Shown here: positions 1,423-50,772 of the stretch, one piece after another | How positions within the stretch are numbered: position 1 is the stretch's first letter | Layout: the number at the start of each line of letters is the position of its first letter | Assembly: GCA_029861865.1 (NCBI GenBank) | Contig: JAOTYL010000001.1 | Coordinates: 498,536-562,535, forward strand | Direction: 5' to 3' | From: Myxococcales bacterium | Lineage (GTDB): Bacteria > Myxococcota_A > Polyangia > Polyangiales > Houyiibacteriaceae | DNA: 64,000 nt | Program-made: the position numbers and the translations under genes | Notes under the pieces: generated by a model | What the model saw: only the letters and a program-made list of their open reading frames with translations | Databases searched by the model: none | Told to the model about the DNA's origin: nothing

Positions 1423-2157
1423 CTAGAGGCTGTCCAGCCCAGCAAGTGGATCGTCGGTATCCGCTTTGCGTGGCTTCGACCGGCCGCGCCGTGTTCCGGC
1501 CGGCTTGTTCGGTGATGCAGCCCTTCGTGCTGCCGCGGCGGCCTGTGCTTCGCGCTGGGCTTTCTCCGCTAGACGTGCCTTTTCCGCCTCCGCCTCTGCG
1601 CGTTTTTGAGCCTCCAACTCGGCTGCTTCCCGAGCAGCTTCCGCTTCGCGCGCTGCTCGCTCGGCTTCCATCTTGGCTGCGAGGGCTTCCGCCTCTTGCT
1701 GCTCGACGGCCGGCTTGTAGATCCCGAAGTACGAGCCGCCTAGCGCCACGGCAACGAGCACCACGGCTGCCGCCACCAGTCCGGGGTGGACCCCTTTGCG
1801 CTGTTGTGCGCTGATCGCCGCGATCTCTTTCTCGTGCGCCAGCATGCGCTGATGCTCGTCGGCCTTCTCTCTAGCCTCTTGTTCCAATCGTACACGCAGC
1901 TCGGCTTCTTTGCGCTCGCGAAGGGCTTGCTCCTCTTCCTCGCGGGTCCTCCGCTCCTCGGCAGCGCGAGACTCTTCTTGAGCGCGGAGTCGCGCCTCTT
2001 CCTCTTCTTGCTTTCGGCGAGCCTCCTCCGCCAAGCGCTCGCGCTCGGCTGCCTCGCGTTCGAGCCGCTCCTCCTCCTCCTCACGAACCCGGTCTTCTTC
2101 GAGGTTCATGAGCTCTCGAAGGTTGAAGAGAACGGAAGACTCTTTTTCCTCGGACAT
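1423..2157 (-). CDS. Hypothetical single-pass membrane protein with Glu/Arg/Ala-rich coiled-coil segments on both sides of the TM helix
   Basis: ORF 1423..2235. I prefer ATG 2157 (MSEEKESSVLFNLRELMNLEEDR...) because the codons upstream of it are AT-rich and look non-coding. TM helix GLVAAAVVLVAVALGGSYFGIY; basic C-terminal tail. No enzymatic motif seen. Confidence 0.6.
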   Translation of the reverse strand: MSEEKESSVLFNLRELMNLEEDRVREEEEERLEREAAERERLAEEARRKQEEEEARLRAQEESRAAEERRTREEEEQALRERKEAELRVRLEQEAREKADEHQRMLAHEKEIAAISAQQRKGVHPGLVAAAVVLVAVALGGSYFGIYKPAVEQQEAEALAAKMEAERAAREAEAAREAAELEAQKRAEAEAEKARLAEKAQREAQAAAAARRAASPNKPAGTRRGRSKPRKADTDDPLAGLDSL

Positions 2158-2167
2158 GATGATACTT

Positions 2168-2197
2168 ATATTACACTTTTCCGCTGTATTCGGACAA
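2168..2197 (-). promoter_or_regulatory. Candidate sigma70-type promoter (TTGTCC-N18-TAATAT), 10 nt upstream of ATG 2157; near-leaderless
   Basis: Read on the minus strand: cccTTGTCCgaatacagcggaaaagtgTAATATaagtatcatcATG. No purine-rich SD lies between the -10 and the ATG. The block is AT-rich in a GC-rich genome. Confidence 0.3.
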
Positions 2198-2330
2198 GGG
2201 GCCAGCTGACCTTTTCGAGATGAAGACGCTAGCAATCGGCTCGGGCGCCTGTCAAACGAACGGTTTTCTCCGATTTCCGCTCCCGTCGGAATGTCCGGGC
2301 CCGAGCGCGGCCACTCCGCGGGTTTGTGAT

Positions 2331-2367: not shown

Positions 2368-4116
2368 ATGTCAGGGCTCGAAAACTTCCTCCACTACCTC
2401 GAAAGAGGGGATGTCAGCGAAATTGTCTTTCAAAGCGGGGCGACCGCCGCGGCCAAGCGAAAAGGCCGGCTTCAGCCGGTTACTCGAGAGCCGCTGACCG
2501 CTCAGCACATTCTCAAGTTGGTCGAACAGACGCCTTTGCAGGACCTCGTCCCCCAGGAGGACGGCGCCAGTGCACCAACAGCGACACATATCAACGGAAA
2601 CAAGTACGTTGCGACTGTCGCTCGCTCAGGACAGATGCTGTTGTTGCGGGTCTGGCTTCCCGACCGCCTGTCGGACCCCGTGCCGGTGGCACCGCCCGAT
2701 CCACAGCTCGAACCCGAGTCGACCAAGGTGCCGATCGGAGCGATGCGTCCCGCCAACGGTCAGTGGACGTCGGCGAGACCCCCCGGGCTTCTGCTCGAGT
2801 CGTCGCAAGCTCCACCAGAGATACGCTCCGCGCCGCCGGCTCCACGCATCCCTTCTCATCGCCCGCCGCCGGTTGCGATCAAGTACCCGAACGCTCGGAG
2901 CGTGATTCCGAGACATTCGTATCGCCCGCCACCCGAAGCCTCCCCGTTGGCCGAGTTCGTGCCGGCGGACGTGCCGGCATCGGCGCCTCCCGCGCTCCGT
3001 AAATTGTTGGTGGAGGCTCGCACTGAATCCGCGAGCGATGTTCACATCATGTCTGGGGAACCGGTGCGCTTTCGATGCAATGGCTCGCTGGTTGCGCGAG
3101 GTGCTCCGTTAGATGACGACGAAGCTCGCTCTCTGCTGGCGCCCTTGCTCAACGAGCGCAATGCGCACCAGTTCGAGGAGCTCGGGTACGCGGACTTCGC
3201 CTGCCAGATCGAGGGCGCTGGTCGCTTTCGAGTAAACGCCAACAAACAGCGGAGTGGAATCAAGGGGTGCTTTCGACTGATCATGAACGAGCCCCCAACC
3301 GTCGAGTCTCTCAGTTTGCCGCAGGAGTTACGGCAGATGCTCGACTACCATCAGGGGCTGGTCGTGGTGTCCGGTCCGAGCGGCGCAGGCAAGACGACGA
3401 CACTCGCGGCACTCGTCGACCTGTTCAATGCGGAACGCTCGGTTCACGTCATTACGGTCGAGGACCCTGTCGAGATCATCCATCCGATCAAGAAGGCGAT
3501 CATCAGCCAGCGTGAGGTCGGTTCACATACCAAGAGCTTCCACGCGGCGCTGAAGGGATCCCTACGCGAGGACCCCGATGTCATCGCCATCGGTGAGCTA
3601 CGGGACTGTGAGACGGTCGAGAAAGCGCTCGAGGCGTCGGAGACGGGGCACTTGGTGTTCGCCACGATGAGCACACCTTCGGGCGCGACCACGATCGACC
3701 GTCTGATCGACATGTTTCCACCCGACGATCAATCCCAGGTGCGTGCAACGCTGGCGGGCGCGCTCAAGTTCGTGGTGAGCCAGCGTCTGGTTCCGAAAAA
3801 GGACGGGCACGGCCGCGTGGTTGCAGTCGAGCTCTTGACCGGAAACATGGCGTTGTGGTCACTCATCCGCGACGACAAGCTGTTTCAGTTGCCGAGCCTC
3901 CTTCAGCGCGGCCGCGCATTTGGGATGATCCGCATCGAAGACTCGCTCAACGAGCTGCTCGCCGCCGGCGTGATCACCGAGGAGGTCGCGAAGGCCTACG
4001 CCGACGATCCCCGGGTCATCGGGGCAGGGGCGCCCGTGCCCCAGCCCACCCCGCAAGATCAAGAACGCGCTCGAAAAGGCACCCGCCGCAACCTGTTTTC
4101 CAGGAAGGACAAGTGA
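2368..4116 (+). CDS. PilT-family (T2SSE) ATPase paralog with an extra degenerate N-domain, a Pro-rich linker and an altered His box
   Basis: Walker A GPSGAGKTTT; Walker B/Asp box EDPDVIAIGELRD; His-box region GHLVFATMSTPSGATTIDRL (Ser where the PilT in this window has His). I prefer ATG 2368 (MSGLENFL...) over the track start at 2326. Confidence 0.85.
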   Translation: MSGLENFLHYLERGDVSEIVFQSGATAAAKRKGRLQPVTREPLTAQHILKLVEQTPLQDLVPQEDGASAPTATHINGNKYVATVARSGQMLLLRVWLPDRLSDPVPVAPPDPQLEPESTKVPIGAMRPANGQWTSARPPGLLLESSQAPPEIRSAPPAPRIPSHRPPPVAIKYPNARSVIPRHSYRPPPEASPLAEFVPADVPASAPPALRKLLVEARTESASDVHIMSGEPVRFRCNGSLVARGAPLDDDEARSLLAPLLNERNAHQFEELGYADFACQIEGAGRFRVNANKQRSGIKGCFRLIMNEPPTVESLSLPQELRQMLDYHQGLVVVSGPSGAGKTTTLAALVDLFNAERSVHVITVEDPVEIIHPIKKAIISQREVGSHTKSFHAALKGSLREDPDVIAIGELRDCETVEKALEASETGHLVFATMSTPSGATTIDRLIDMFPPDDQSQVRATLAGALKFVVSQRLVPKKDGHGRVVAVELLTGNMALWSLIRDDKLFQLPSLLQRGRAFGMIRIEDSLNELLAAGVITEEVAKAYADDPRVIGAGAPVPQPTPQDQERARKGTRRNLFSRKDK

Positions 4117-4119
4117 ATC

Positions 4120-5196
4120 ATGCCAGCGCTCGATCGATACTTTGATGTGCTTCTCGACCGCGATGGGTCCGATCTCCACCTCTCGGTAGGCTATCCACCC
4201 ACGATTCGCGTAAAGGGACAGCTGGTCGCAATCGCGCGTCAGCCGCTGGATCGTCCGACCATCACTCGTCTCATGGACGAGCTGCTGGACCAAGATCGGC
4301 TCGAGTACTTTCACGCGTATCACGATCTCGACTTCGCATACGGCTACGAGGACAAGGCGCGCTTTCGCGCAAACTATCTCTACAAGACGACGGGACCGGG
4401 CGCCGTCTTTCGAACCATTCCGCGCGAGATTCTGACGACCGAGCAGTTGGGCCTGCCCGAGGCCGTCGTAGGCCTCGCGGATAGGAGAGCGGGCTTGGTG
4501 CTCGTAACCGGACCGACGGGTAGCGGAAAGAGTACGACGCTTGCCGCCATGCTCGACTACATCAACCGTAAACGCGAGGGACACATCCTCACGATCGAAG
4601 ATCCAGTCGAGTTCGTGCATCGACCGCGCAAATGCCAGATCACCCACCGCGAGGTCGGAGTGCACACACCGAGCTTCGCCGACGCGATTCGAAGCGCTGG
4701 TCGGGAGAACGCGGACGTCATCCTCGTAGGCGAGCTACGAGGGCGTGAGACCATGAAGATGGCCCTTCAGCTAGCTAGCTTCGGGGTGTTGATCTTCGCG
4801 ACGGTTCACACCAACTCGGCGCCCGCAACGATCGACCGTTTCGTCAACGCCTTCCCGGCAAGTCAACAGCCTCAGATTCGAGGTATGCTCGCAGAATCTC
4901 TGGCGGGTATCGTCGCACAGCAACTCCTAAGGAGAGCGGACGGAAGCGGGCGTATCGCGGCCCAGGAGATCCTCATCGGCACGTCGGGGGTATCCTCTGC
5001 AATTCGCGAGGCCAAGACGACCATGCTGCAAAGCTTGATCCAAAGCGGTGGGAGCTACGGGATGCAGAGCATCGACGCAGTCCTCGCCCGACTGGTCGCC
5101 GAGGGCAAGGTGACCGCACAGGACGCCGTCGAGAAAGCCGCCGACAAGGAGACTTTCGCAAGGATCCCAGCGGTAGCAAAGGCACTCGCGGGCTAA
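4120..5196 (+). CDS. PilT/PilU-family ATPase paralog
   Basis: 358 aa. GSDLHLSVGYPPTIRVKG N-domain, Walker A GPTGSGKSTT, ENADVILVGELRG, His box FATVHTNSAPATIDRF. The ATG lies 3 nt after the previous stop. Confidence 0.85.
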   Translation: MPALDRYFDVLLDRDGSDLHLSVGYPPTIRVKGQLVAIARQPLDRPTITRLMDELLDQDRLEYFHAYHDLDFAYGYEDKARFRANYLYKTTGPGAVFRTIPREILTTEQLGLPEAVVGLADRRAGLVLVTGPTGSGKSTTLAAMLDYINRKREGHILTIEDPVEFVHRPRKCQITHREVGVHTPSFADAIRSAGRENADVILVGELRGRETMKMALQLASFGVLIFATVHTNSAPATIDRFVNAFPASQQPQIRGMLAESLAGIVAQQLLRRADGSGRIAAQEILIGTSGVSSAIREAKTTMLQSLIQSGGSYGMQSIDAVLARLVAEGKVTAQDAVEKAADKETFARIPAVAKALAG

Positions 5197-5269
5197 GCAC
5201 TCACGCTGCGTCAACCGGTGACTCGGGCCGCCGCAGTGCCGGCGTCAGTGTCAGCGTTCTCGCGAAGTA

Positions 5270-5437
5270 GGTGACCCGGGCTGTGGCGCGCGGCATGTCC
5301 TCGAACGCGAGTTCCGCAGGCGCCGATCCATCACTCCGAGTCATACACTCGAGAGGGAGTCCACAATGCTGCCCAACATCCCCGCCGAGGATGTCTGAGC
5401 GGGCGAGGGCGTGCCGTGCGCCACAGCCCGGGTCACC
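5270..5437. repeat. 168-bp element bounded by 26-bp inverted repeats (25/26 match), in a convergent intergenic region
   Basis: Left arm 5270-5295 is ggtgacccgggctgtggcgcgcggca. The reverse complement of 5412-5437 is ggtgacccgggctgtggcgcacggca. A further 9-bp pairing joins 5295-5303 to 5386-5394. Confidence 0.7.
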
Positions 5438-5449
5438 GGTATCTGACCG

Positions 5450-7285
5450 CTACTTCACGTCGAAGTTGTAGCGCGCGCCCATTCTCGGGGCGCCGAACGG
5501 CGGGAACCGTACGCTGGCGATCTGTTGGCCCATGCACGTTTGAAAACCGGCGCCGCCTCCCCGTACCGTGGCGCCTAGAACCGAGCCGTTGCCTGCGATT
5601 GCAAGGTCGACTTTCACGTTGCCGAGCTGAGTGCCGCTCTTGACCTCGGGGATCACGCACTTGCTATAGAAGCGGTTGAGGTTGCGATTCATCACGCTGG
5701 CGACCTGGGCGCCGGTGAGCCGACCCTCTCCGCCGCCTTGTGAGGCGTCTCCGATTTCAACCGCCCGGCTCATCGCCTCGTCGTAACTCGCGAACCCGCC
5801 CTGGCTCCGCGGAGCGGCGGCGGAGCCGGAGCCCCTCCTACGGCGCCGAATAGGTCGATCCGGCAGCAGGCCCGCCTCGCCGGTCGGGATGTCCCCGAGC
5901 TTGAAAAGGTCGTCGAGCTCGGTCGAAGACGCCTCCCGGACGTCACTCGAGCGCGACATCAAGAAGCCGCCGACCGACAGCGCGATGACCCCGACGAGAG
6001 AAGCGGCAATCAGCCATTTCGCGGCCGCCGAGCGCTTCTCCGATCTCCGTGCGTGGACCCGTGCGGCGTGGGCTGCCGCCACCTCGTCTTGATGCTCCCG
6101 TTGCAGGATGAACTCGCGGAACTCCGGCCACTCGCGGAGAGGCCTTCGTTCGTTGCTATCCGTGTTGAGCGTCGGGTCGTCTCCCGAAAACCCACCGACG
6201 TTCAGTCGCTCGATGAGCTCGCGCGCGTTGAATGGCCCGTGGTCCATCTTGTCGCGGGCCACCATCCAACGCTGCTTCGTATCCGACGAGAGCTCCTCCA
6301 GGATGGTCTTGAGGTCCGGTCTTGGTGGCGGCGGCGGAGCCAATGGCGCTTGCGGAAGAAGCGAAAACACAGGGATGTCGATGTCCGGTGGTGGCAAGAC
6401 GGAGCTGAGATCGATGTCGAGAGTCACCCCTTCCGAGGGCGGCGGCGGCATCGAGTTGGCCACCTGTACGAAAGGCGTCAGCGCAGTACGCACGGCTTCG
6501 GGCGAGTCGAAGCGGTCTTTCGGGTCGTGCGCGAGGCACCGGAACAGAATGCCGTCCAGCTCGGGCGGGATGTCTTGTCGCAGGTGTGACGGCGCGACAA
6601 ACCCCTTGCCCGGCGAGCGCGTCGTCAGCAGCTCGTAGAGAATCGCGCCAACGCCGAAGACATCGCTCCGAGCCGTCGCTGGTTTGCCTTCTTTGACCTC
6701 TGGGGCGAGGCACGCTTGGTCGCTATCTTGGAACGCGCTCGGACCCACCGCCTCGAGGAGAACCTGTCCGACGCCAAAGTCGCGCACCTTCACTTGGCCC
6801 TCACGCGTGACCCACACCGCGCTCGGGCGAAGGGTTCCATGCGGGCCTTTGTCGTGCGCGTAGCTCAGCGCGCTACACAGATGCGCGACGACGTTGTAAA
6901 TCCCGCGCAGCGAAAGAGGCTCATCTTGGCGGTCGCGTTCCTGGATGAACTCGGACAGCGGAGTCCCGTCGATCCACTCTCCCGCGATGAAGTGCTCTCC
7001 CTTTTCCGTGCAGCCCACACCGAACATCTTGGCGATGTTGTTATGGGATAGGGCGGCCGCCATCCGGCATGCCTCCCGAAAATCAGAAGCGGCTTGCGGT
7101 GGCACTAGGTCCGGCCGAAGCACGTGGACGAGAATGTCTCGCTTGGTCTGGCGATCCTTCGCCGACCACACCACGGCCTGCGGGTCTTCGTCGACCCGAT
7201 CGACGACCTCGAACCTTCCCCCTACCACGGCTCCCGGCTGTAAACCCGAGAGCTCGGGCGCTGTCGATGCGATCCCCTCAGGCAT
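5450..7285 (-). CDS. Hanks-type pseudokinase with GYF-like region, TM helix and AgmX/PglI-like (TonB-C-like) C-terminal domain
   Basis: The kinase fold is recognisable (DFG, APE, DPKDRF). The Gly loop is absent (VDEDPQA), the beta3 Lys is replaced (ILVHVL), and HRDLKPxN reads PHGTLRPSAV. TM helix WLIAASLVGVIALSVGGFLM. Tail: FYSKCV...GNVKVDLAIAGNGSV...FQTCM...VRFPPF. Confidence 0.8.
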   Translation of the reverse strand: MPEGIASTAPELSGLQPGAVVGGRFEVVDRVDEDPQAVVWSAKDRQTKRDILVHVLRPDLVPPQAASDFREACRMAAALSHNNIAKMFGVGCTEKGEHFIAGEWIDGTPLSEFIQERDRQDEPLSLRGIYNVVAHLCSALSYAHDKGPHGTLRPSAVWVTREGQVKVRDFGVGQVLLEAVGPSAFQDSDQACLAPEVKEGKPATARSDVFGVGAILYELLTTRSPGKGFVAPSHLRQDIPPELDGILFRCLAHDPKDRFDSPEAVRTALTPFVQVANSMPPPPSEGVTLDIDLSSVLPPPDIDIPVFSLLPQAPLAPPPPPRPDLKTILEELSSDTKQRWMVARDKMDHGPFNARELIERLNVGGFSGDDPTLNTDSNERRPLREWPEFREFILQREHQDEVAAAHAARVHARRSEKRSAAAKWLIAASLVGVIALSVGGFLMSRSSDVREASSTELDDLFKLGDIPTGEAGLLPDRPIRRRRRGSGSAAAPRSQGGFASYDEAMSRAVEIGDASQGGGEGRLTGAQVASVMNRNLNRFYSKCVIPEVKSGTQLGNVKVDLAIAGNGSVLGATVRGGGAGFQTCMGQQIASVRFPPFGAPRMGARYNFDVK

Positions 7286-7321
7286 CTACCGTTCCAACAT
7301 AGACGACGCGCGGGCCGGGAT

Positions 7322-8998
7322 TCAACTTCGCGGGGCCGCTCCCTCATTTTCGGCGAGCTCGACACTGAGCTCTCGCTCGCGCAAAACCGCACCGGCCATC
7401 GAGTCGATGATCTCCTTTGCCCGCGCCTCTGGCACGTCGACCAACGAGTGCGTGTTGCGCACCCGTATGCGGCCGATTTCTCTACGTTTCAGGCCGGTGC
7501 GTTCTTGCAGCAAGCGCCCCAACTCCGAGGCCTTCAAGTCGTCGCTCTTGCCCACGTTGACATACAGCGTCGCCGTCGGCGGTGCCTTGGCCTCGGTGAC
7601 CCCCTCATCTGAGTCCTTCGGGGGCTTGGGCGGTGTCGTCGCTCGTCGGCCGCGTCGCCGCTGTTTGGCCGCGACTTCGTCGATCTCTTCACTGCCCGAA
7701 CCGAAAAACGCACCGAGAAGCCCCGCAAGCATTCGCTCTGCGTCTGGATGTGTGATGAGACGACGCGCCAGGGCAAGCGATCGTTCGTCGGGCGGATTTG
7801 GATAGGCGAGGTCGATCATCGCAATTCGATCGGCTTCCCGTCGCGTCTTCGCCTCGCCCGCGCTCGGTAGCGTCCGCTCGACCGGTAGGATTCCGTACTG
7901 GAGCCGCAGATAGTAGAGAATCCCTAGCTCGTTGGGGCCGACCAGTGAGATTGCGGTGCCCGTGCGTCCGGCACGCCCCGTGCGGCCGGTGCGGTGAACG
8001 TACTGCTCCACGTTCTCGGGCAAGTGGAAGTTGATCACGTGGGTAAGATGAGATACGTCGATTCCGCGTGCCGCCACGTCGGTGGCGACCAAGAATCGGA
8101 CCTCGTTTCGCCGGGTTTGCGCGAGCACCTTCTCCCTCTCTCGCTGCGGGCGGTCGCCGTTCAACCATTCGGCATTGAACCCAGCCCGCTTCAACGCTGC
8201 GGAGACCTCCTCCGTCTCCGCCTTGGTGTTACAGAAGATCAATGCGCTTTCCGGGTTTTCGATCTCCAAAATCGAGATCAGGTTCCCGACACGTCCCATC
8301 CCGCTGAGCATGTAAACGAAATGCTCGATCCCCAACGCTCCAACGTGATCGCCAGACAGCCCGAGGAAAATCGGGTCGCGCATGTGCCTTTCGGCCACAC
8401 GCTTGATCGCGCGGTCGACCGTCGCCGAAAAAAGTAGGGTTTGGCGATTGCTCGGAAGCCTTTCGATGATCGCGTTGAGCTCCTTGGCGAACCCCATCGA
8501 CAGCATTTCGTCTGCCTCGTCGAGCACCAACACGCGAAGGCGGGAAGCCGTGATGGTGCCGCGCTTGAGGTGATCCAGCACGCGGCCAGGGGTCCCGCTG
8601 ATGACCCGCGCGCCCTTCTTGAGTGCGCTCACTTGGCGTTCCATCGAAGCGCCCCCGTAAACGGCGACGGTGTCGATGCTGCGGTGCGCCCCGAGCTTCT
8701 CAATCTCGCGTGCGCTTTGGAGCGCCAACTCACGTGTTGGAGCAAGAACGAGCGCCTGCTCATCCCCGTCGATCGACATGAGTTTGTCGACGAGCGGGAT
8801 CCCAAACGCGCCGGTCTTTCCCGTTCCGGTGCGAGCCTGGACGATGACGTCGTTTCCGTCGACGATCATTGAGTAGGAATCACGTTGAACCGGAGTAGGC
8901 GTTTCCCAGCCGAGGTCGCCCAAAGCTTTGAGCACGTCGTCATGCAAGCCAAGGTCTTCGAAGGTCTGGGGGTCGTCCGCGGCGGGCGCCTCGTTCAT
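7322..8998 (-). CDS. DEAD-box ATP-dependent RNA helicase with DbpA-like C-terminal RNA-binding domain
   Basis: Q motif TPTPVQ, AQTGTGKT-like ARTGTGKTGAF, DEADEM, SAT, HRTGRTGRAG. I chose start ATG 8998 (MNEAPAADD...FEDLGL), which overlaps the upstream stop (ATGA). Confidence 0.9.
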   Translation of the reverse strand: MNEAPAADDPQTFEDLGLHDDVLKALGDLGWETPTPVQRDSYSMIVDGNDVIVQARTGTGKTGAFGIPLVDKLMSIDGDEQALVLAPTRELALQSAREIEKLGAHRSIDTVAVYGGASMERQVSALKKGARVISGTPGRVLDHLKRGTITASRLRVLVLDEADEMLSMGFAKELNAIIERLPSNRQTLLFSATVDRAIKRVAERHMRDPIFLGLSGDHVGALGIEHFVYMLSGMGRVGNLISILEIENPESALIFCNTKAETEEVSAALKRAGFNAEWLNGDRPQREREKVLAQTRRNEVRFLVATDVAARGIDVSHLTHVINFHLPENVEQYVHRTGRTGRAGRTGTAISLVGPNELGILYYLRLQYGILPVERTLPSAGEAKTRREADRIAMIDLAYPNPPDERSLALARRLITHPDAERMLAGLLGAFFGSGSEEIDEVAAKQRRRGRRATTPPKPPKDSDEGVTEAKAPPTATLYVNVGKSDDLKASELGRLLQERTGLKRREIGRIRVRNTHSLVDVPEARAKEIIDSMAGAVLRERELSVELAENEGAAPRS

Positions 8999-43254: not shown

Positions 43255-44048
43255 GTGATTACCTCTCCGAGATCCTAGCTCGAACCCGTCGCGAGAACCT
43301 GCGACGCCGAAAGCACGTCAAGGCGATGCGGCCGCTCGTGCGAGAGCCCCAGCCAGAGCGCTCGGAACGCGGCATCGCAGCGCTTCGTCGCGCGGCTGGT
43401 GGGCCTCCATCCGTCATCGCAGAGGTCAAGTTTCGAAGCCCGAGCGCAGGTGCCATTCGAAGGTGGGCTCCAGGGGAAGGGGTCCGTGTCGCTCGTGCCT
43501 ACGAACGCGGCGGCGCGTCCGTCATCAGCGTCCTTGCGGATGCGCCCGACTTCGGTGGGTCTCCGCTGCTCGTAAGACGAATCTCGGAGTCGGTCTCGGT
43601 CCCGGTGCTTTTCAAAGGCTTCGTCATCGACCCCGTTCAGGTGGACTTGGCTTTCGATGTTGGCGCCTCGCTCGTCTTGCTGCTGGTTCGTGCGCTCGGC
43701 GACAAAGCGCTCCAGTCTTTAATCGCCCATGTCCGCGCGCTCGGCATGGAACCGGTCCTCGAAGCAGCGAACGATGAGGAAGTCGACCGAGCCGTTGCGT
43801 CGAGCGTGACCGTCATCGGGGTCAACGCCAGGGATCTACAGACCTTCCAGGTCGACTTGCCCATGGCTCACCAGTGTGTGGCGCGGATTCCCCCAGATCG
43901 CGTTGCCGTGTTCATGAGCGGGGTGCGCACCAGCGACGACTTCCGGCAGGTCGCTCAGGGCCGCGCCGATGCCGTGCTGATCGGCGAGAGCCTCATGCGG
44001 GCCGAGGATCCCGGTGTTCGTCTGTCTGAGCTCTTGCGCTCAGCCTGA
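43251..44048 (+). CDS. trpC: Indole-3-glycerol phosphate synthase
   Basis: VIAEVKFRSPSAG, ISVLAD, IGVNARDL, GESLMR. The ATG at 43251 overlaps the trpD stop (ATGA). Confidence 0.92.
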   Translation: MSDYLSEILARTRRENLRRRKHVKAMRPLVREPQPERSERGIAALRRAAGGPPSVIAEVKFRSPSAGAIRRWAPGEGVRVARAYERGGASVISVLADAPDFGGSPLLVRRISESVSVPVLFKGFVIDPVQVDLAFDVGASLVLLLVRALGDKALQSLIAHVRALGMEPVLEAANDEEVDRAVASSVTVIGVNARDLQTFQVDLPMAHQCVARIPPDRVAVFMSGVRTSDDFRQVAQGRADAVLIGESLMRAEDPGVRLSELLRSA

Positions 44049-45708
44049 TGGTTTCGTGCTCCAGCGGCAGTGTAACCCGAAAACAAGTGCCCGGGCCTGG
44101 ACGGTCCACGATCTCGATCCGCGCCTTGTGCTGGTCGACGACTTGCTTCACGAGCGCTAGTCCGAGCCCAACACCGTGGCTCCGCCCCGAATAAAACATG
44201 TCGAAGAGTCGCCCTCGCTGTGCATCGTCGATCCCGCGACCTTCGTCGGCTACCTCTAAAAACGCCCGACCCGAATCGTCACGACCGGCGCGCACCTCGA
44301 CCGTCCCGCGGTGGGGTGATGCTTGGACCGCGTTTTTCACCAAGTTCCACACGACTTGCCGCAGCCTATCGGGATCAACCGTAGCAATGATCGGTTCTTC
44401 GGGGAGTCGCTCTTCGATGCACAAGCCGTTGCTCTGAGTCGCTTCACCGCGCGCGACGACCACGACGTCACTGACGAGAGTACGTAGGTCCTGGGGCTCC
44501 GTGTGAATCTGGCTCGGACGACCGACCTGCAGCATCTTGGTGACCAGTGCGTCCAGCCGATCGACTTCCGAGATCACGATCCCCAGCAAGCGTCGGTCCT
44601 CGGGGCCGAGCGCGTTTCCTTCGCGTACTATGTCCACCGATCCCGAAATCGAGCTGAGGGGGTTTCTAATTTCGTGTGCGAGCCCAGTGGCGAGCTGCCC
44701 GAGGACCGCGAGCCGTTGCGCCTGCTCGGCTTGTTCCTTGAGGTCCTTAATTTCGGTCAGGTCTTGGAACACGAGCAGCAGCCCCGACGAGTTGCCTTCG
44801 GCGTCGACCAGCGCGCTCATCATGTACCCCATCGGGAATTCGGTGCCGTCGGCGCGCCTCCCAGGCGCTTCCGCGCGCCTCGGGGGCTCGCTCGCTCTCT
44901 TCTTTTCGTAGCCTGGCAGCACGACCGACAATGGCCGACTCACGAGCGTGCCGGCACCGTCGCGAAGAATGTCGCGAGCTGCGCGGTTGATGCCAATGAT
45001 GCGCCCTTCCTCGTCAGCGGTGATGAGCCCCGAGGCGATCGAGCGAACGATGTCGTCGTTGAGCCTGGCAAGACGCGCGGCGCTTTGCTCTGCCTCTATG
45101 AGTTGCGCGCCGACCATTTGGACTCGTCGGGCGAGGTTGGTCGCAAGGAGCGCGACCGCCGAGATGCCCACCATGTTCCACAGGAGCGCAAAGATGAAGT
45201 CTTTCGAGTCCAGGATGTACTGGCTCAAGGGCTGGTCAGGCGGCGGCGGTAACCAGCCGACGTTGAGTGCAAGGCCCTGAAGGAGGTAGCAAGCCAGGCA
45301 GGTTGCCGCTGTGATGTAAGCCGCGTTTGCACCGAGGGTGAGCGCCGCAGTCAGGATCTCAGCGCCGTACAGAAACGAAAAAATGCTCCCCGCTCCTCCG
45401 GTGAGGTAGACCAACCCGGTGATCAGAAGCACGTCGAGGCCGGTGACCGCCATGGCGACGGCATGCTCCTGCCGCCCGCGCAGCAACCAAACCCCGAAGA
45501 GAATCGACGACCCGTAGATTATCGAAATTAGGATCAGCAAGAAGGTTGGCGTGAACTGGCCATACCGTATGGCATCCAGCGCCAGATACATCGTTGTGCC
45601 GAGGAGAATTGTCGCGATGAACAAGCGACCCCCGAGGACCCACTGAACCCGTCTGTGCGGGTGGGGTTCCTCGCGCTCACCGGTCGACCTGTGCGGTGGC
45701 TGGATCAC
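43993..45708 (-). CDS. PilS-like sensor histidine kinase (polytopic N-terminus, PAS, HisKA, HATPase)
   Basis: About 6 N-terminal TM helices. H box LAHEIRNPLSSISGS; N box NLVKNAVQA; DEGRGI; GLGLALV. GTG start overlaps the pilC stop (GTGA). The 3' end overlaps trpC by 56 nt. Confidence 0.85.
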   Translation of the reverse strand: MIQPPHRSTGEREEPHPHRRVQWVLGGRLFIATILLGTTMYLALDAIRYGQFTPTFLLILISIIYGSSILFGVWLLRGRQEHAVAMAVTGLDVLLITGLVYLTGGAGSIFSFLYGAEILTAALTLGANAAYITAATCLACYLLQGLALNVGWLPPPPDQPLSQYILDSKDFIFALLWNMVGISAVALLATNLARRVQMVGAQLIEAEQSAARLARLNDDIVRSIASGLITADEEGRIIGINRAARDILRDGAGTLVSRPLSVVLPGYEKKRASEPPRRAEAPGRRADGTEFPMGYMMSALVDAEGNSSGLLLVFQDLTEIKDLKEQAEQAQRLAVLGQLATGLAHEIRNPLSSISGSVDIVREGNALGPEDRRLLGIVISEVDRLDALVTKMLQVGRPSQIHTEPQDLRTLVSDVVVVARGEATQSNGLCIEERLPEEPIIATVDPDRLRQVVWNLVKNAVQASPHRGTVEVRAGRDDSGRAFLEVADEGRGIDDAQRGRLFDMFYSGRSHGVGLGLALVKQVVDQHKARIEIVDRPGPGTCFRVTLPLEHETIRLSARAQTDEHRDPRPA

Positions 45709-46916
45709 TCAGCGTTTACTTTACCCGCGATCGAGAAGATCGGCAGGTACATCGCGATCAGGATGGTGCCCACGATTCCTCCGATGAAAACCATCATCAG
45801 GGGCTCGAGCAGCGAGGTGAGGGCTGCGACCGCAACGTCGACCTCGTCCTCGTAGAAGTCTGCGATCTTGTTGAGCATAGTATCGAGCGCGCCGGTCTGC
45901 TCACCGACGCCGATCATCTGCACGACCATTGGCGGAAACACGTTGGTCTCCATGAGCGGCTCGGCCATGGTCCGGCCCTCGCGGATCTTGTTCGACGTCA
46001 CCTGGATTGCGGCCTCCACAACCACATTGCCCGCCGACTTCTTCACGACATCGAGCGAATCGAGGATGGGAACGCCCGCTGAGAGCAGCGTTCCCAGGGT
46101 CCGCGTGAACCGGGCGACCGAAATCTTCCGTATTACCGGGCCCATGATGGGCATGATGAGCAAGGTCCTGTGGAAGAAGTGTTTGCCCGCCGGCTGCCTG
46201 TAGACCCACGTGACGCCAAACACGATCGCCCCAACGCCCAGGATGATCCAAACGATGTTGCTCAGGAAGCCTTCGGAGGCGGAAATCACCAACTGCGTCA
46301 GCGCAGGAAGCGAGTCTTCACCCCCAAACTCCGCGAACATGCCCTTGAAGCTCGGAATGACCCACGCCAGCATCACGACTACGACGATGACTGCGACCAA
46401 GAAGATCGCAATCGGGTAGACCATCGCCCCGCGAACCTGCCGGGCGAGCTTGACCCGCTTCTCGATGTAGAGCGCTAGACGGTTGAGAATCGTATCCAGG
46501 ATACCGCCCATCTCACCGGCGCGTACGAGGTTGACGAACAGCTCATCGAACAGCTTTGGGTGGCGAGCCAAACCCTCGGAGAACGTTCCACCTTGCTCGA
46601 CGTAGTCTTTGACGTCTTTGAGGATCGTATTGAGATTCTTGTTCTCGCCTCGGCTCGACAGGATGTCCAAGCACTGGACCAACGGAAGGCCGGCGTCGAT
46701 CATCGTCGCGAACTGGCGCGTGAAGATGACGAGCTCCTTCGGGGTGACACCGGTGCCGAGGGAGAGCTTGAGCGCTCGGCCCTTCTTTTTGATCTTCACC
46801 GGGTTCAACTGGCGCGCGCGCAGCCGTGTCTGCACGGCTTCCTTGCTGTCCGCCTCGATGATCCCGGTCTGAACCTCACCCGCGCGAGTGCGCGCTTCGT
46901 ATACCCACTCGGCCAT
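45705..46916 (-). CDS. pilC: Type IV pilus platform protein PilC (GspF family)
   Basis: 403 aa with two T2SSF repeats (FTRQFATMIDAGLPL... and FTRTLGTLLSAGVPIL...) and a conserved VGEQTGALD motif. Confidence 0.92.
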   Translation of the reverse strand: MAEWVYEARTRAGEVQTGIIEADSKEAVQTRLRARQLNPVKIKKKGRALKLSLGTGVTPKELVIFTRQFATMIDAGLPLVQCLDILSSRGENKNLNTILKDVKDYVEQGGTFSEGLARHPKLFDELFVNLVRAGEMGGILDTILNRLALYIEKRVKLARQVRGAMVYPIAIFLVAVIVVVVMLAWVIPSFKGMFAEFGGEDSLPALTQLVISASEGFLSNIVWIILGVGAIVFGVTWVYRQPAGKHFFHRTLLIMPIMGPVIRKISVARFTRTLGTLLSAGVPILDSLDVVKKSAGNVVVEAAIQVTSNKIREGRTMAEPLMETNVFPPMVVQMIGVGEQTGALDTMLNKIADFYEDEVDVAVAALTSLLEPLMMVFIGGIVGTILIAMYLPIFSIAGKVNAE

Positions 46917-46951
46917 GTAATCTCCGCCCGATCCCCAGCGGGCCTCTCAAA

Positions 46952-46981
46952 ATCCTAGCCGATCAGTGATCACGGGGTCAA
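46952..46981 (-). promoter_or_regulatory. Candidate sigma70-type promoter for pilC (TTGACC-N18-TAGGAT) with an embedded GTGATCAC palindrome
   Basis: Minus strand reads ctttTTGACCccgtgatcactgatcggcTAGGATtttgagagg...ggcggagattacATG. Confidence 0.3.
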
Positions 46982-47022
46982 AAGCCGAGCGCAATTCCGC
47001 TCTGACTGGCATCCCCTAGGGC

Positions 47023-48618
47023 CTAGTTGCGATAGGGATTTTGGATGTCGATATCAACCGGCTCAGGCTTGGGCTTCGGGGGTGCTGGGGCTGGTCTTGG
47101 CGCTGCCTGCCCGCCTGAGGTCGGCTCTGAGGTCGTCGCGCTGGGCTCTGGCTGAGGCCTCGGGCGCGCGCGTTTCCGCCGCGGCCGCCGAACCGGTTTG
47201 ACTGTAGATCCAGTCGACGGTTTGACCTCGGCTGGGGACCCCTGAACGACGTTCGGTGGCCGTTCGGCCGGTGCCCTGGTTTCTTCCTTGGCCGGCTCGG
47301 CTTGAGGCGCAAGGGGCTGGACGGCCTGCGCGGGAGGCTCGGTGGTGTTGGGTGCAGGCGATGCACCGAGGAGCTGCCAGACCAGGAAGGCCGCATACAT
47401 GAACACGAGCGCAGCGAGCAGCATGACGAACCACTTCAACAGGGGAGAGTCGGCGGCCGCGCGCACGATGACGGGCGTACCGTCGGTCAACATGCCCGAC
47501 ACGCTTCCATCGGGTGATAGTGTCTCGGCGCGACTGTAGGTTTGACTCGCCTGCGCAATCCCTTCACGCGGCATGGGGACCTGAGATTCGGCGAACTCGG
47601 TGCGCCCGAGCATCTCGATGGCATCTCGTACCCGCTGTCGTTCTTCTTGAAGCTTCTCTGCGTCGAGTGCCCGAACGACTTCGGCAACATCGCGCGTCTT
47701 GGCGATACCAGTTCTACCGGCGCCTGCGTCGAGCGCCTCCGCGAACTCATCTGCGCTCTGGAATCTCTCAGCGGGATCGCGGCTCAAGGCCTTCATCACG
47801 ATCTCGTCGTAGTGAGCCACGTCACCCGACAGCCTTGAAGGTGGAATGATCTCGTCGTTCAGGAGCCTGTTCAAGGTGGCGGCGTTGGTGTCCCCCTTGA
47901 ACAAGCGTCTCCCGGTGAGTGACTCCCATAGAATGATCCCGACGCTGAACAGGTCTGAACGTTGGTCGGTCTCATTCGATGAGGCCTGCTCCGGCGCCAT
48001 GTAGGAGAGCTTCCCTTTGAACTGGCCAGCGCGGGTAGATGCCATCCGAACGTCCGCCTTGGCGACACCGAAGTCGGTCAATCGTGCAATACCGTCGGTT
48101 CCGATGAGGATGTTGTGCGGCGAGACGTCGCGATGGACGAGCTTGAGTTGATTTCCATTCTCGTCGGTGAGGCGGTGCGCAGCAGCAAGCCCCTGAAGCG
48201 TGTCGACCAGCACTCTACATACGAACGGCTGGGGCAGCCGCTCTCCCTTCTTGGCAGCGCGTCCTAGGAGCGCGCCCAAGTGATTGCCCTCGATGTATTC
48301 CATGACGAGGAAGTAGCCATCGCCAGGGCTGTCACTGATGTCGAGCGTTGGAACGACGTTCATGTGACGAATCCTCGCAGCGAGTCGCGCCTCATCGAGG
48401 AACATAGAGATGAACTCCTGTTCGTAGGCTAGGTGCGGGTGCAGGACCTTGATCGCGACGAGCCGTTCGAACCCGGCCACCCCCTGTGCCCGCGCCACGT
48501 AAACGGATGCCATGCCACCCGACGCAAGCTGCGTCAGGATCTCGTATCGTCCAAGCTGCCGACCAGCCACCGGTCGCGAAATGCGATCGCCTTCCGGTAT
48601 GCCGGCAGGCGCGTTCAT
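47023..48618 (-). CDS. Ser/Thr protein kinase (Hanks type, catalytic motifs intact) with TM helix and Pro/basic-rich tail
   Basis: Gly loop LASGGMASVY, VAIKVL, HRDVSPHNIL, DFGVAK, YMAPE. TM helix WFVMLLAALVFMYAAFLVW. Confidence 0.9.
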   Translation of the reverse strand: MNAPAGIPEGDRISRPVAGRQLGRYEILTQLASGGMASVYVARAQGVAGFERLVAIKVLHPHLAYEQEFISMFLDEARLAARIRHMNVVPTLDISDSPGDGYFLVMEYIEGNHLGALLGRAAKKGERLPQPFVCRVLVDTLQGLAAAHRLTDENGNQLKLVHRDVSPHNILIGTDGIARLTDFGVAKADVRMASTRAGQFKGKLSYMAPEQASSNETDQRSDLFSVGIILWESLTGRRLFKGDTNAATLNRLLNDEIIPPSRLSGDVAHYDEIVMKALSRDPAERFQSADEFAEALDAGAGRTGIAKTRDVAEVVRALDAEKLQEERQRVRDAIEMLGRTEFAESQVPMPREGIAQASQTYSRAETLSPDGSVSGMLTDGTPVIVRAAADSPLLKWFVMLLAALVFMYAAFLVWQLLGASPAPNTTEPPAQAVQPLAPQAEPAKEETRAPAERPPNVVQGSPAEVKPSTGSTVKPVRRPRRKRARPRPQPEPSATTSEPTSGGQAAPRPAPAPPKPKPEPVDIDIQNPYRN

Positions 48619-49598
48619 CAGAAACGACCCTTGAGCGTGAAGGCTCCGCCTCTCTTCGTGACTCCGACCGCAGGCTCAACACGCCTTTTGGCCACTTCTC
48701 GGGACTCATTCTTCCAGTTGGTGAAGACCCCCAAGACCGCCGTCGTCGCTGCCATCCCAGCGGTGACACCGATCAAGATGTTCGTTCGTCGCTCCTTGCT
48801 CCGACCGTCTTCGAGAAGCGCCTGAGCCTCCTCAGCAGGAGTCGGTGAGCCGCTGGCATTGATACCGGGGGAATTGGCCGTGCGGGCAGCAGTCTCGTAA
48901 GCACTAAGACCGTTGTTCGCGTTGAGGCCGGACCAGATGGTGACTGCTCCGAGTGCCACGGTCGCGCCGAGCGAGCTGAAGAAGACTGAGCGTGGAATTG
49001 GCGGAGGAGGCGGCGGAAGCGGCGCAGCGAACTTGACCGTCTTCGTCGAACCCTGCTTCCCGCGCACCACTGCGGACGTCTCGCCAGCCTCGAAAGCGGC
49101 TTTGAGCGAGTGCTCTACCTCGGCAGAAACGAAAAACGTATCGTGCTGGATCAGCGCGCCGTCGAGCTCGAGGGTGCATTCCGTCGCGCACTGTGCTTTC
49201 ACTAGGACCGCGGTCGGCTTGACCGCTTCGATGACCGAGCTCGCAGGCTTCTTGGAATTTTGGTCCGTCGGGTAACGATCGCGAAGTACGAGTGCGAGGT
49301 TTGCGGCGCGGATCGTGTTGCCCGCTTTGTCATGCGCACGAACAGCCTGAAGTAGCGCGGTCGAGGTCGGCACCAATCGGTTCGCACGCTCGAACCAGTG
49401 AGCTGCGAGCTCGTATCTTTCCGCGAGGTACGCCGACGTGCCCTGGTCGTAGGCATCCGCCGCTTCGGCGCGATCGTCGACCGAGACGTCTTGCCCACCG
49501 CCCGGCACCAACTGGGCTTCGGCCACAACGGAAAACATCAAAGAGAGTGTTAGGGCGATAGAGGCCGCCCATCGCTGCTCGTAAGCCATGCTGGTCAT
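48618..49598 (-). CDS. Hypothetical secreted/membrane protein (signal peptide, TPR-like helices, PEGA-like beta segment, poly-Pro, C-terminal TM helices)
   Basis: 326-aa ORF. Signal peptide AASIALTLSLMFSVVAEA. Stop and kinase start overlap by 1 nt (TGATG). Confidence 0.55.
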   Translation of the reverse strand: MTSMAYEQRWAASIALTLSLMFSVVAEAQLVPGGGQDVSVDDRAEAADAYDQGTSAYLAERYELAAHWFERANRLVPTSTALLQAVRAHDKAGNTIRAANLALVLRDRYPTDQNSKKPASSVIEAVKPTAVLVKAQCATECTLELDGALIQHDTFFVSAEVEHSLKAAFEAGETSAVVRGKQGSTKTVKFAAPLPPPPPPIPRSVFFSSLGATVALGAVTIWSGLNANNGLSAYETAARTANSPGINASGSPTPAEEAQALLEDGRSKERRTNILIGVTAGMAATTAVLGVFTNWKNESREVAKRRVEPAVGVTKRGGAFTLKGRF

Positions 49599-49617
49599 TC
49601 GGTAAATCCCGCCTTAA

Positions 49618-49656
49618 CGATAATAAAAATATGACGAGAAGCCGAATCCGTCGTCA
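49618..49656 (-). terminator. Weak candidate intrinsic terminator/attenuator after pilT
   Basis: Minus-strand RNA: UGACGA-(13-nt loop)-UCGUCA followed by UAUUUUUAUUAU. The 5' arm includes the pilT stop codon. The stem is only 6 bp. Confidence 0.3.
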
Positions 49657-50772
49657 ACGGTGGCCCTGCTTGTAGCCCTTCTGGTCTAAATTGCTGAGCA
49701 TTTGCCGGAACTCGTCTTGCTCGGGGGAGCGGATCTCCGCGAGCTCCCGATCGAGAATCCCATGCGCAACCAGGTGCAGCAGCGACTGGTTCATCGTCTG
49801 CATGCCCGAGCTCTCCTGACCGGTCTGCATGATGCCGTACATCTGGTGGATCTTGTCCTCACGGATGAGATTCCGAATGGCCGCGTTCGGGATCAACGCC
49901 TCGCAGGCCATGGCTCGGCCGGGCCCGTCGCATCGCGGCAGCAGCATTTGACTCAACACGCCTTGAAGCACGAAAGACAGCTGTGCGCGAATCTGGCTCT
50001 GCTGGCCCGAGGGGAAGACGTCGATGATACGGTTGATCGACTGGGCGGCGGTGTTGGTGTGCAACGTGGCGAACACCAAGTGGCCGGTTTCAGAAATGGT
50101 GAGGGCGGCCTCGATCGTCTCGAGATCGCGCATCTCGCCGATGAGAACGACGTCGGGATCCTGTCGGAGGACGTATTTGAGCGCATCTTTGAAGCCCGTC
50201 GTATCGGAACCCACCTCGCGCTGATTCACGATGCAGAGCTTGTTGGAGTGTAGGAACTCGATCGGATCCTCGACTGTAACGATGTGATGGCGGTGCTCAG
50301 TGTTGATCTTGTCTATCATCGAGGCGAGCGTGGTCGATTTGCCGGAACCGGTGGGACCGGTCACCAGTACTAGGCCGCGGGGTCGCGTGCAGAGCTCTTC
50401 GACGACGGGAGGCACCCCCAATTTGGACAACGGCCGGATTTGAAACGGAATCGCACGAAACGCTCCTGTCACCGCACCACGCTGCAAGAAGACGTTTGCA
50501 CGAAAACGCGACAAGGACTTGACGCCGAACGAAAAGTCGATTTCGTGCCCTTTTTCGAAGCGTAAGCGTTGATCTTCCGTCATCACCTCATAACAGAGCG
50601 CCTTGCTCTCGCGTGGTTTCAGCGGAGGCGTCCTTAGAGGCACCAGCTGGCCATCGATGCGCAACTGCGGCGGAGAGCCCGTCGTGATGTGCAGATCGGA
50701 AGCGCCGCGCTCGACCATGAGCCTGAGTAACTGACGCAAAGTAAGAGAAGGAGCCGGTTGTGGTGCAGCCAT
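49654..50772 (-). CDS. pilT: Type IV pilus retraction ATPase PilT (canonical)
   Basis: GPTGSGKSTT, DPDVVLIGEMRDLETI, ETGHLVFATLHTNTAAQSINRI, AIRNLIREDKIHQM. Confidence 0.95.
   Translation of the reverse strand: MAAPQPAPSLTLRQLLRLMVERGASDLHITTGSPPQLRIDGQLVPLRTPPLKPRESKALCYEVMTEDQRLRFEKGHEIDFSFGVKSLSRFRANVFLQRGAVTGAFRAIPFQIRPLSKLGVPPVVEELCTRPRGLVLVTGPTGSGKSTTLASMIDKINTEHRHHIVTVEDPIEFLHSNKLCIVNQREVGSDTTGFKDALKYVLRQDPDVVLIGEMRDLETIEAALTISETGHLVFATLHTNTAAQSINRIIDVFPSGQQSQIRAQLSFVLQGVLSQMLLPRCDGPGRAMACEALIPNAAIRNLIREDKIHQMYGIMQTGQESSGMQTMNQSLLHLVAHGILDRELAEIRSPEQDEFRQMLSNLDQKGYKQGHR

Follow-up and report, generated by a model that had tools for sequence, protein, structure and literature searches.

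Two adjacent PilT-like genes with altered His boxes

The window analyzed in this study is a stretch of 64,000 nucleotides from a Myxococcales bacterium (assembly GCA_029861865.1, contig JAOTYL010000001.1, positions 498,536 to 562,535). It contains two adjacent genes for PilT-like ATPases, here called P1 and P2, whose products have lost different parts of the PilT His box and may work in a common ring. P1 (2368..4116, plus strand) encodes a long protein of 582 amino acids counted from its ATG, P2 (4120..5196, plus strand) a PilT-sized protein of 358 amino acids. As described in an earlier note on this DNA, which was made from the sequence alone, the two open reading frames (ORFs) lie on the same strand and three nucleotides separate the P1 stop from the P2 start, the junction being TGA-ATC-ATG. 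The start methionine of P1 is common to its close homologs; an alternative GTG is located at 2326. In profile searches P1 and P2 reached 393.5 and 408.7 bits with NCBIfam TIGR01420 (pilT_fam), whose curated cut-off is 319.1, and both proteins thus belong to the PilT/PilU family. Pfam T2SSE was matched by both as well. The canonical PilT of the window, which the earlier note had taken as comparator, is present at 49654-50772, on the minus strand (the note had omitted the strand), and scored 476.3 bits with pilT_fam.

A three-way alignment of P1, P2 and the canonical PilT revealed every motif quoted in the earlier note at its place. The canonical protein reads ETGHLVFATLHT and AIRNLIRE. In P1, the Walker A motif GPSGAGKTTT (3373..3402, plus strand) has kept its lysine and carries a serine in place of the threonine that contacts T221 in PilT. 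It is followed by DPDVIAIGELRD, by the His box ETGHLVFATMST (3640..3675, plus strand), in which the threonine and the first histidine are kept and the second histidine is replaced by serine (codon 3670-3672), and by ALWSLIRDDKLFQL. The stretch DPDVIAIGELRD had been labelled Walker B/Asp box, but it comprises the Walker B region only; the Asp box, intact in both proteins, reads TVEDPVE (P1) and TIEDPVE (P2). The Walker A motif of P2, GPTGSGKSTT (4510..4539, plus strand), is fully canonical and identical in 120 of 120 homologs. In the Walker B region of P2, NADVILVGELRG (4708..4743, plus strand), the catalytic glutamate is kept and the aspartate after the arginine is exchanged for glycine. Its His box, SFGVLIFATVHT (4777..4812, plus strand), has Ser-Phe-Gly-Val instead of Glu-Thr-Gly-His, with the second histidine kept, and its last motif is GVSSAIREAKTTML. 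Neither P1 nor P2 possesses a complete His box, that is, Thr-Gly-His together with the second, phosphate-coordinating histidine. The AIRNLIRE motif of PilT proper is partly kept, reading ALWSLIRD in P1 and VSSAIREA in P2. The Walker A lysine, the Glu/Asp of the Asp box and the catalytic glutamate of Walker B occur in both proteins, with a conservation of 98-100% in either family. With respect to its architecture, P2 fits the arrangement of PilT proper (N2D plus C-terminal domain (CTD), ~350-370 amino acids), while P1 consists of this two-domain core with an additional N2D-type domain and a linker in front of it.

The pilT_fam match of P1 covers residues 210-548 and the first helix of the regular N-domain begins at residue 208. 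The additional N-terminal part therefore amounts to about 205 residues rather than the about 235 estimated in the earlier note. From the coverage by pilT_fam and T2SSE and from the structure model, the regular PilT N-terminal domain was assigned to residues ~206-310 (2983..3297, plus strand). According to the models, residues 1-97 (2368..2658, plus strand) are a folded second PilT N-domain, which agrees with the degenerate first copy that the note had proposed and for which it had named structure prediction as a check. The AlphaFold2 (AF2) model of this domain alone had a predicted local distance difference test score (pLDDT) of 84 and a predicted template modelling score (pTM) of 0.76; in the full-length model the pLDDT rose to ~92. 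All of the 29 matches with E <= 0.001 that Foldseek retrieved from the PDB were PilT, PilU or DotB chains, the 110-residue N-terminal model being aligned over ~100 columns with template modelling (TM) scores of 0.65-0.68 on the query. In the model, the extra domain and residues 208-305 show the same order of secondary structure elements (helix, three strands, two helices, three strands). Among 68 homologs, 27 columns of the extra domain are invariant, and the domain can be recognized by eye in Sorangium and in metagenome-assembled genomes (MAGs) of Myxococcaceae. With hhalign, it proved homologous to the N-terminal part of P0448, a protein of M. xanthus (probability 97%, E 4e-11). Its sequence resembles the regular N-domain only weakly, though in the correct register, both in the clade of the window (hhalign E 0.003, probability 10%) and for the Myxococcus-type domain (E 4e-4, probability 36%), and for this reason the claim of a duplication rests on the predicted fold.

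Residues ~98-205 (2659..2982, plus strand) form a proline-rich linker that is predicted to be disordered, with pLDDT values below 50 at residues 101-197, and that varies in length and sequence among the homologs. It harbors the conserved motif SYRPPPEASPLAEFV at 2917-2961. Of 119 close homologs, 69 carry the core pattern SYRPP[PA]EA and 74 the looser pattern [YF]RxP. This short motif could be a docking motif. The linkers of M. xanthus (P0448) and a few relatives contain two to three copies of [SA]YR[TA]PEP.

A Shine-Dalgarno-like sequence for P2, AGGAAGGA (4103..4110, plus strand), was read from the last codons of P1, 9 to 16 nucleotides upstream of the ATG at 4120, and suggests translational coupling of the two genes. 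The basic C-terminal tail of P1, RNLFS[KR]K[DG]x (4087-4113), is conserved in the homologs and overlaps this sequence. Conservation of the tail may thus in part reflect the ribosome-binding site and not the protein.

Spread of the pair and its Myxococcus xanthus orthologs

A scan for the pattern ETGHLVxxTMxTP, using one genome per GTDB species, yielded at least 119 loci, of which at least 96 were P1-like among the matches listed. All of the P1-like loci were labelled Myxococcota or unresolved 'delta/Proteobacteria'. They occurred in Sorangium cellulosum So ce56 and So0157-2, Minicystis rosea, Polyangium and Labilithrix, and also in Kofleriaceae, Nannocystaceae, Paraliomyxa miuraensis, Sandaracinaceae and in MAGs labelled Myxococcaceae. 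Among the 96 loci, 11 belong to sequences that end within 450 nucleotides of the P1 stop. In the remaining 85 informative loci among the matches listed, P2 was always found directly downstream of P1 on the same strand, with a median projected gap of 2 nucleotides (15 nucleotides or less in 78 of 85), and no P1 locus without P2 was detected among them. Synteny in related genomes, which the earlier note had asked for, is thus evident. As judged from this gene order, P1 and P2 are a two-gene operon that is inherited as a unit across Myxococcota.

To compare single positions, 80 P1 and 76 P2 sequences from the GTDB genome loci were mapped onto the numbering of Geobacter (Gm) PilT. At H230, the second histidine of the His box, P1 proteins have serine (51%) or asparagine (49%) and never histidine, P2 proteins histidine (99%). 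The reverse was found at T221, which is threonine in 100% of P1 and phenylalanine (88%) or tyrosine (9%) in P2. Likewise, H223 and E220 are kept in 100% of P1, whereas P2 has isoleucine or valine at the former and serine (99%) at the latter position, and D208, which is invariant in P1, is glycine (57%), threonine (30%) or asparagine (7%) in P2. Conversely, T133 of Walker A is threonine in 99% of P2 and threonine (46%), serine (34%) or asparagine (18%) in P1, and R278 is kept in 99% of P2 and mostly replaced by methionine, valine or leucine in P1. R81, R83 and R195, the Walker A lysine, the Asp box and the catalytic glutamate are ~100% conserved in both families, the equivalents of Arg81 and Arg83 being present in the regular N-domain of 100% of the P1 family. 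R124, which in PilT forms a contact found in the all-closed conformation alone, is missing from both P1 and P2.

The same picture emerged from searches for closer and for more distant relatives. The His-box motif search matched 118 of the 120 close homologs of P1 (65-98% identity), each of these 118 reading ETGH...TMS[T/A]PS. In 120 P2 homologs (71-93% identity), the ETGH position is occupied by S-[F/Y]-G-[I/V/C], the second histidine is retained and GELRG mostly replaces GELRD. When 1.84 billion cluster representatives were searched exhaustively, dozens of further clusters with less than 50% identity emerged, containing long PilT-like proteins of 500-1000 amino acids with ETGHLVxxTM[S/N]TPS. 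Asparagine at the position of the second histidine was found in M. xanthus and 118 relatives. The earlier note had left it to such comparisons whether the substitutions are conserved in orthologs; they are essentially invariant across the P1 and P2 families. Decay of strain-specific paralogs or sequencing errors, suggested at most by the deviating motifs and by the lack of an adjacent pilus gene, can be dismissed as very improbable and is refuted by these conservation data, since substitutions and gene order are kept across Myxococcia and Polyangia down to a core identity of ~56%, many positions are invariant and both ORFs are intact.

Myxococcus was missed by the pattern scan because of HLL instead of HLV in the motif, and was recovered by a protein search that started from a MAG of Myxococcaceae. 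The matches comprised Myxococcus xanthus, M. virescens, M. stipitatus, M. fulvus, Corallococcus, Archangium, Stigmatella and Cystobacter, all of them with ETGHL[L/V]xxTMNTPS. The M. xanthus locus (L120) encodes P0448, a protein of 570 amino acids, followed one nucleotide later by a PilT-like gene for 369 amino acids with SFGVLVFATVHT and GELRT. P1 and P0448 share 56% identity in the core. In a neighbour-joining tree, the P1 family and the P2 family are each monophyletic, each includes M. xanthus, and their internal clades match. Based on the core, the tree and the motifs, P1 and P2 are orthologs of M. xanthus MXAN_6705 and MXAN_6706, respectively; as the locus stems from assembly GCA_013116825.1 and not from DK1622, these two tags were assigned by the published description, namely adjacent tags and a long N-terminus of the first protein. 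The pairs share the tandem order with the long protein first, the homologous N-terminal domain, TMNTPS in the first M. xanthus protein corresponding to the altered His box of P1, and SFGV...VHT with GELRT in the second. They differ at the position of the second histidine, which is asparagine in Myxococcus and serine in P1 of the window, and in the downstream gene, which is recX in M. xanthus (L120 10923-11486) and a convergent kinase-like gene in the window. A recX gene next to the pair was seen neither in the window nor in most other loci; in Geobacter sulfurreducens, recA and recX lie on either side of pilT1 (PMC5065972).

The M. xanthus pair is not new as such. MXAN_6705 and MXAN_6706 had reportedly been catalogued as PilT paralogs by Clausen et al. 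2009. A recent study described them as adjacent paralogs that are 'highly conserved across Myxococcales', the longer N-terminus of MXAN_6705 as 'predicted to be intrinsically disordered' and the His box as conserved in all paralogs, and it assigned PilU of M. xanthus to MXAN_1995 (PMC13584747, J Bacteriol 2026). Unlike that account, the present analysis found complementary lesions in the His boxes and a predicted folded domain at the start of the long N-terminus, and two published statements on these proteins, a conserved His box in all paralogs and an intrinsically disordered long N-terminus, are thereby corrected. Beyond the J Bacteriol study, the literature searched mentioned neither MXAN_6705/6706 nor a degenerate PilT His box of such kind. 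While the gene pair was already catalogued, its complementary degeneracy and the tethered extra N-domain have not been described before in the searched literature.

The inter-subunit contact and a possible mixed ring

In PilT hexamers, every nucleotide site is completed in trans by a neighbouring chain, whose T221, the threonine of ETGH, contacts H230, the second histidine, of the chain that holds the ATP, and this contact is made in closed interfaces only (McCallum et al. 2019, PMC6858323). The two residues are evolutionarily coupled, T221 also contacts T133 of Walker A, and a proton relay from the catalytic glutamate via H230 to T221 of the adjacent unit and on to T133 has been proposed; in P. 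aeruginosa, the exchange H229A abolishes twitching (PMC6858323). Since P1 has lost the second histidine and P2 the threonine, the two partners of one and the same contact have been hit separately. A homohexamer of either protein would lack one contact partner at all six sites, which is the main argument for a mixed ring. We consider such a ring, in which P1 and P2 assemble into one PilT-type hexamer as an alternating trimer of heterodimers, (P1-P2)3, the best reading of the pair, with a probability of roughly one half.

In an alternating ring, three working, near-canonical sites would be combined with three sites that are degenerate on both faces. We infer that the P2-centred sites, which would have their own Walker A threonine, second histidine and Arg278 and would be supplied in trans with the intact ETGH loop of P1, are the likely catalytic ones. 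The P1-centred sites would be altered on both faces, their own second histidine being serine or asparagine, the Walker A threonine often serine or asparagine and Arg278 mostly lost, and they would receive from P2 a trans loop of Ser-Phe-Gly-Val/Ile. Such sites probably bind nucleotide or serve as a static interface and would hydrolyze poorly. The extra N-domain of P1, held by a flexible linker of about 100 residues, may act as a tethered docking or regulatory module. With somewhat less confidence than for the mixed ring itself, and hence tentatively, the pair can be viewed as a motor of the PilT family that is an obligate heterohexamer, its three P1-P2 heterodimers providing three catalytic sites and three that are non-catalytic. 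The extra N-domain would couple this ring to a partner, and the single-chain double-PilT proteins of other phyla would be covalent versions of the design.

Paralogous subunits also alternate in the hexamers of F1 (alpha3beta3) and V1 (A3B3), where every second interface is catalytic. The logic proposed for P1/P2 is the same; family and mechanism differ, the P1/P2 arrangement is deduced from sequence comparison only, and these rings are not homologs within the PilT family. More directly comparable are the canonical PilT hexamers of G. metallireducens (PilT4, PDB 6OJX) and P. aeruginosa (PilT, 3JVV), which have the same N2D plus CTD core (E ~1e-82 to 1e-97) and share with P1 and P2 the Walker A lysine, the Asp box, the catalytic glutamate, R81, R83 and R195. 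What separates P1 and P2 from them is the loss of H230 in P1, of T221, H223, E220 and D208 in P2, and of R124 in both.

Two further arrangements bear on the mixed ring. Three contigs of Eremiobacterota MAGs encode a single protein (P0514 with 1410 amino acids, P0250 and P0513) in which a P1-like module is followed by a P2-like module, in the order of the operon, behind a long TPR-like, acidic N-terminal region. The P1-like module reads ETGC...SSMNT, with the threonine kept and the second histidine changed to asparagine, the P2-like module ADMGN...GIMHT, with methionine for the threonine and the histidine kept. In an Anaeromyxobacteraceae MAG (L103), another tandem pair was detected, with both genes on the minus strand (offsets 5099-7999 of the reverse-complemented locus), which is sister to the P1 and P2 families. 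Its upstream protein has kept both histidines and contains HEAT-like repeats in place of the extra N-domain, and its downstream protein reads ETGI...MHT and GEMRD with the threonine kept. This pair may represent the state before degeneration. That histidine and threonine are both still present suggests that the two losses go together, as a single data point in an unsupported tree.

Several observations weigh against the mixed ring. The deletion of MXAN_6706 is reported to cause a stronger defect in S-motility than that of MXAN_6705 (PMC13584747), while an obligate 1:1 complex predicts equal phenotypes. The role of T221 in shuttling protons is a proposal of McCallum et al. and not an established mechanism. 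Moreover, PilT H229A retains phage susceptibility and, with PilU, weak twitching, so that a site may survive the loss of the second histidine. H223 and the aspartate after the Walker B arginine are missing from P2 as well, and if these residues act in cis, the P2 sites would not be fully canonical. The matching of serine/asparagine in P1 with glycine/threonine in P2 may be due to phylogeny alone. As to the Eremiobacterota fusions, their modules were assigned by modest score gaps (252 versus 229-235 bits and 284 versus 244 bits), and module 2 of one of the three sequences has the threonine restored. Finally, PilT and PilU, the tandem pair that has been studied best, assemble into separate homohexamers (PMC6821130).

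This last point leads to the strongest of the alternatives, namely that P1 and P2 each build a homohexamer of their own and the two rings cooperate like PilT and PilU, one docking on the machine and the other acting through it, with the His-box changes tuning each of them. PilT and PilU of Pseudomonas and Vibrio are likewise encoded by two adjacent genes of the PilT family, the second protein departs from AIRNLIRE, and the partners depend on each other functionally, as proposed here for P1 and P2; they interact and are nevertheless independent homohexamers, each with a complete His box (PMC6821130). Separable proteins are also consistent with the unequal deletion phenotypes, with the partial function of PilT H229A and with the Walker A lysine, Asp box and catalytic glutamate kept in both P1 and P2. 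However, in separate rings all six P1 sites would be without the second histidine and all six P2 sites would face phenylalanine in the place of T221, and it would be left unexplained why the lesions concern the two partners of one inter-chain contact and are fixed together in at least 96 loci. Unlike in PilT and PilU, the T221-H230 contact has lost one member in P1 and the other in P2, and P1 possesses an extra N-domain; the altered His boxes argue against an identity of the pair with PilU. The Eremiobacterota single-chain fusions, too, fit a mixed ring better. We therefore regard two separate rings as rather unlikely.

A slightly less likely alternative is that P1 is a catalytically dead pseudo-ATPase, a regulator or adaptor whose extra N-domain and linker bind P2, PilT or another partner, e.g., the platform protein, and that P2 is the sole motor. 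In favor of this view, the extra N2D-type domain and the long disordered linker occur in P1 alone, the phosphate-coordinating histidine is lost everywhere in P1 and Arg278 mostly, and the stronger phenotype of the MXAN_6706 deletion is compatible with P2 as the main actor. By contrast, the complete conservation of the Walker A lysine, the Asp box, the catalytic glutamate and the N-domain arginines in P1 would be unexpected for a protein that does not handle nucleotides, and a stand-alone motor should have kept the ETGH loop, which is altered in P2. The idea overlaps with the mixed ring, in which the P1 sites would also be poorly active.

The earlier note had regarded the pair as a specialised, possibly heteromeric or regulatory, module rather than a second retraction motor. 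Its heteromeric part is supported, indirectly, by the coupling in an operon, the lesions at T221-H230 and the fusions. The non-motor part is unproven; both proteins keep the Walker A lysine, the Asp box, the catalytic glutamate, R81 and R83, and deletion of MXAN_6706 affects S-motility. In the study mentioned above, this deletion was among the paralog deletions with stronger partial defects in S-motility (PMC13584747). The partial defect connects the pair with the function of type IV pili, to which P1 and P2 are probably linked, and by extension from this phenotype we infer that the mixed ring would have an auxiliary part in the dynamics of these pili.

Motors of the PilT family are regarded as homohexamers, and six equivalent sites underlie the models of how pili are retracted. 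If P1 and P2 do form a mixed ring, three active sites can suffice, and the pair would be, as far as the searched literature shows, the first PilT-like ATPase built as a heterohexamer. The conserved pair would then constitute a natural experiment on the mechanism of PilT that tests the proposed T221-H230 relay, and two paralogs of M. xanthus, one of which affects S-motility, would be given a concrete, testable role.

Tandem modules, neighbouring genes and pilus genes

Tandem PilT-like modules were also noticed in proteins other than the Eremiobacterota fusions. P0252, P0266, P0290, P0291, P0305, P0318, P0332 and P0339 are single chains of ~710-1020 amino acids with two such modules each. Where the motif search detected the His boxes, they were intact, both of them in P0252, P0266, P0290 and P0291; module 1 of P0318 reads SGH...MYT, and in P0305, P0339 and P0332 one His box or none was found. 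Judging by these predicted chains, covalently linked PilT dimers occur in nature. A further candidate for a P1-P2 fusion, P0193 (L121 3887-6752), in which P2 seems to be joined to the C-terminal part of P1, was not used; it lies on a long-read contig of 7x coverage, adjoins a split P1 fragment of 368 amino acids and is probably a frameshift or assembly artefact. Pattern matches in Clostridia/Bacillota, Dehalococcoidia and Abditibacterium were rejected as P1-like because they read TMHTP and scored best as ordinary PilT. The same applies to the Gemmatimonadales MAGs L024, L078, L084 and L086, whose motif ETGHLV[IL]ATMPTPDV has proline for the second histidine and whose best score was also that of ordinary PilT; three of these PilT-like proteins are long (441-567 amino acids) and one is PilT-sized (368 amino acids).

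Upstream of P1, a divergent gene (1423..2235, minus strand) encodes a Glu/Arg/Ala-rich protein of 270 amino acids, coiled-coil-like by composition, with one hydrophobic segment and without a Pfam hit. It is conserved in 12 loci of the close clade only and is probably not part of the P1/P2 module. Downstream, a convergent gene (5450..7285, minus strand) encodes a kinase-like protein of 611 amino acids with degenerate catalytic motifs (Pkinase, 66 bits), full-length orthologs of which adjoin the pair in 10 close-clade loci only. Inspection by eye revealed ILVHVL for VAIK and HGTLRPSA for HRDLKPxN, with DFG and APE kept. The protein is plausibly a pseudokinase, as the earlier note had called it; the AgmX/PglI-like tail named there matched myxo_SS_tail only weakly, with 19 bits against a cut-off of 40. 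The flanking genes, i.e., those of the coiled-coil membrane protein, pyrF, the kinase-like protein and a DEAD-box helicase, were considered as parts of the module and discarded because they accompany the pair in ~10-12 close-clade loci only. More distant loci have unrelated neighbours, and kinase matches there are generic (25-28%) and at varied positions. When the ORFs of 97 loci were clustered all against all, no further partner gene recurred besides the pair and generic kinases. Since no partner recurs and the flanks are conserved in the close clade only, the functional unit appears to be the two ATPase genes alone.

In line with the earlier note, pilus genes are not adjacent to the pair, none being located within ~38 kb of it. 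A pilus gene group lies ~40 kb away, entirely on the minus strand. It comprises genes for a pilS-like histidine kinase (43993-45708), pilC (45705-46916), a Ser/Thr kinase (47023-48618), a protein of 326 amino acids without Pfam hit (48618-49598) and the canonical pilT (49654-50772). Within this group (43993-50772), a kinase of the eukaryotic type is thus placed between pilC and pilT.

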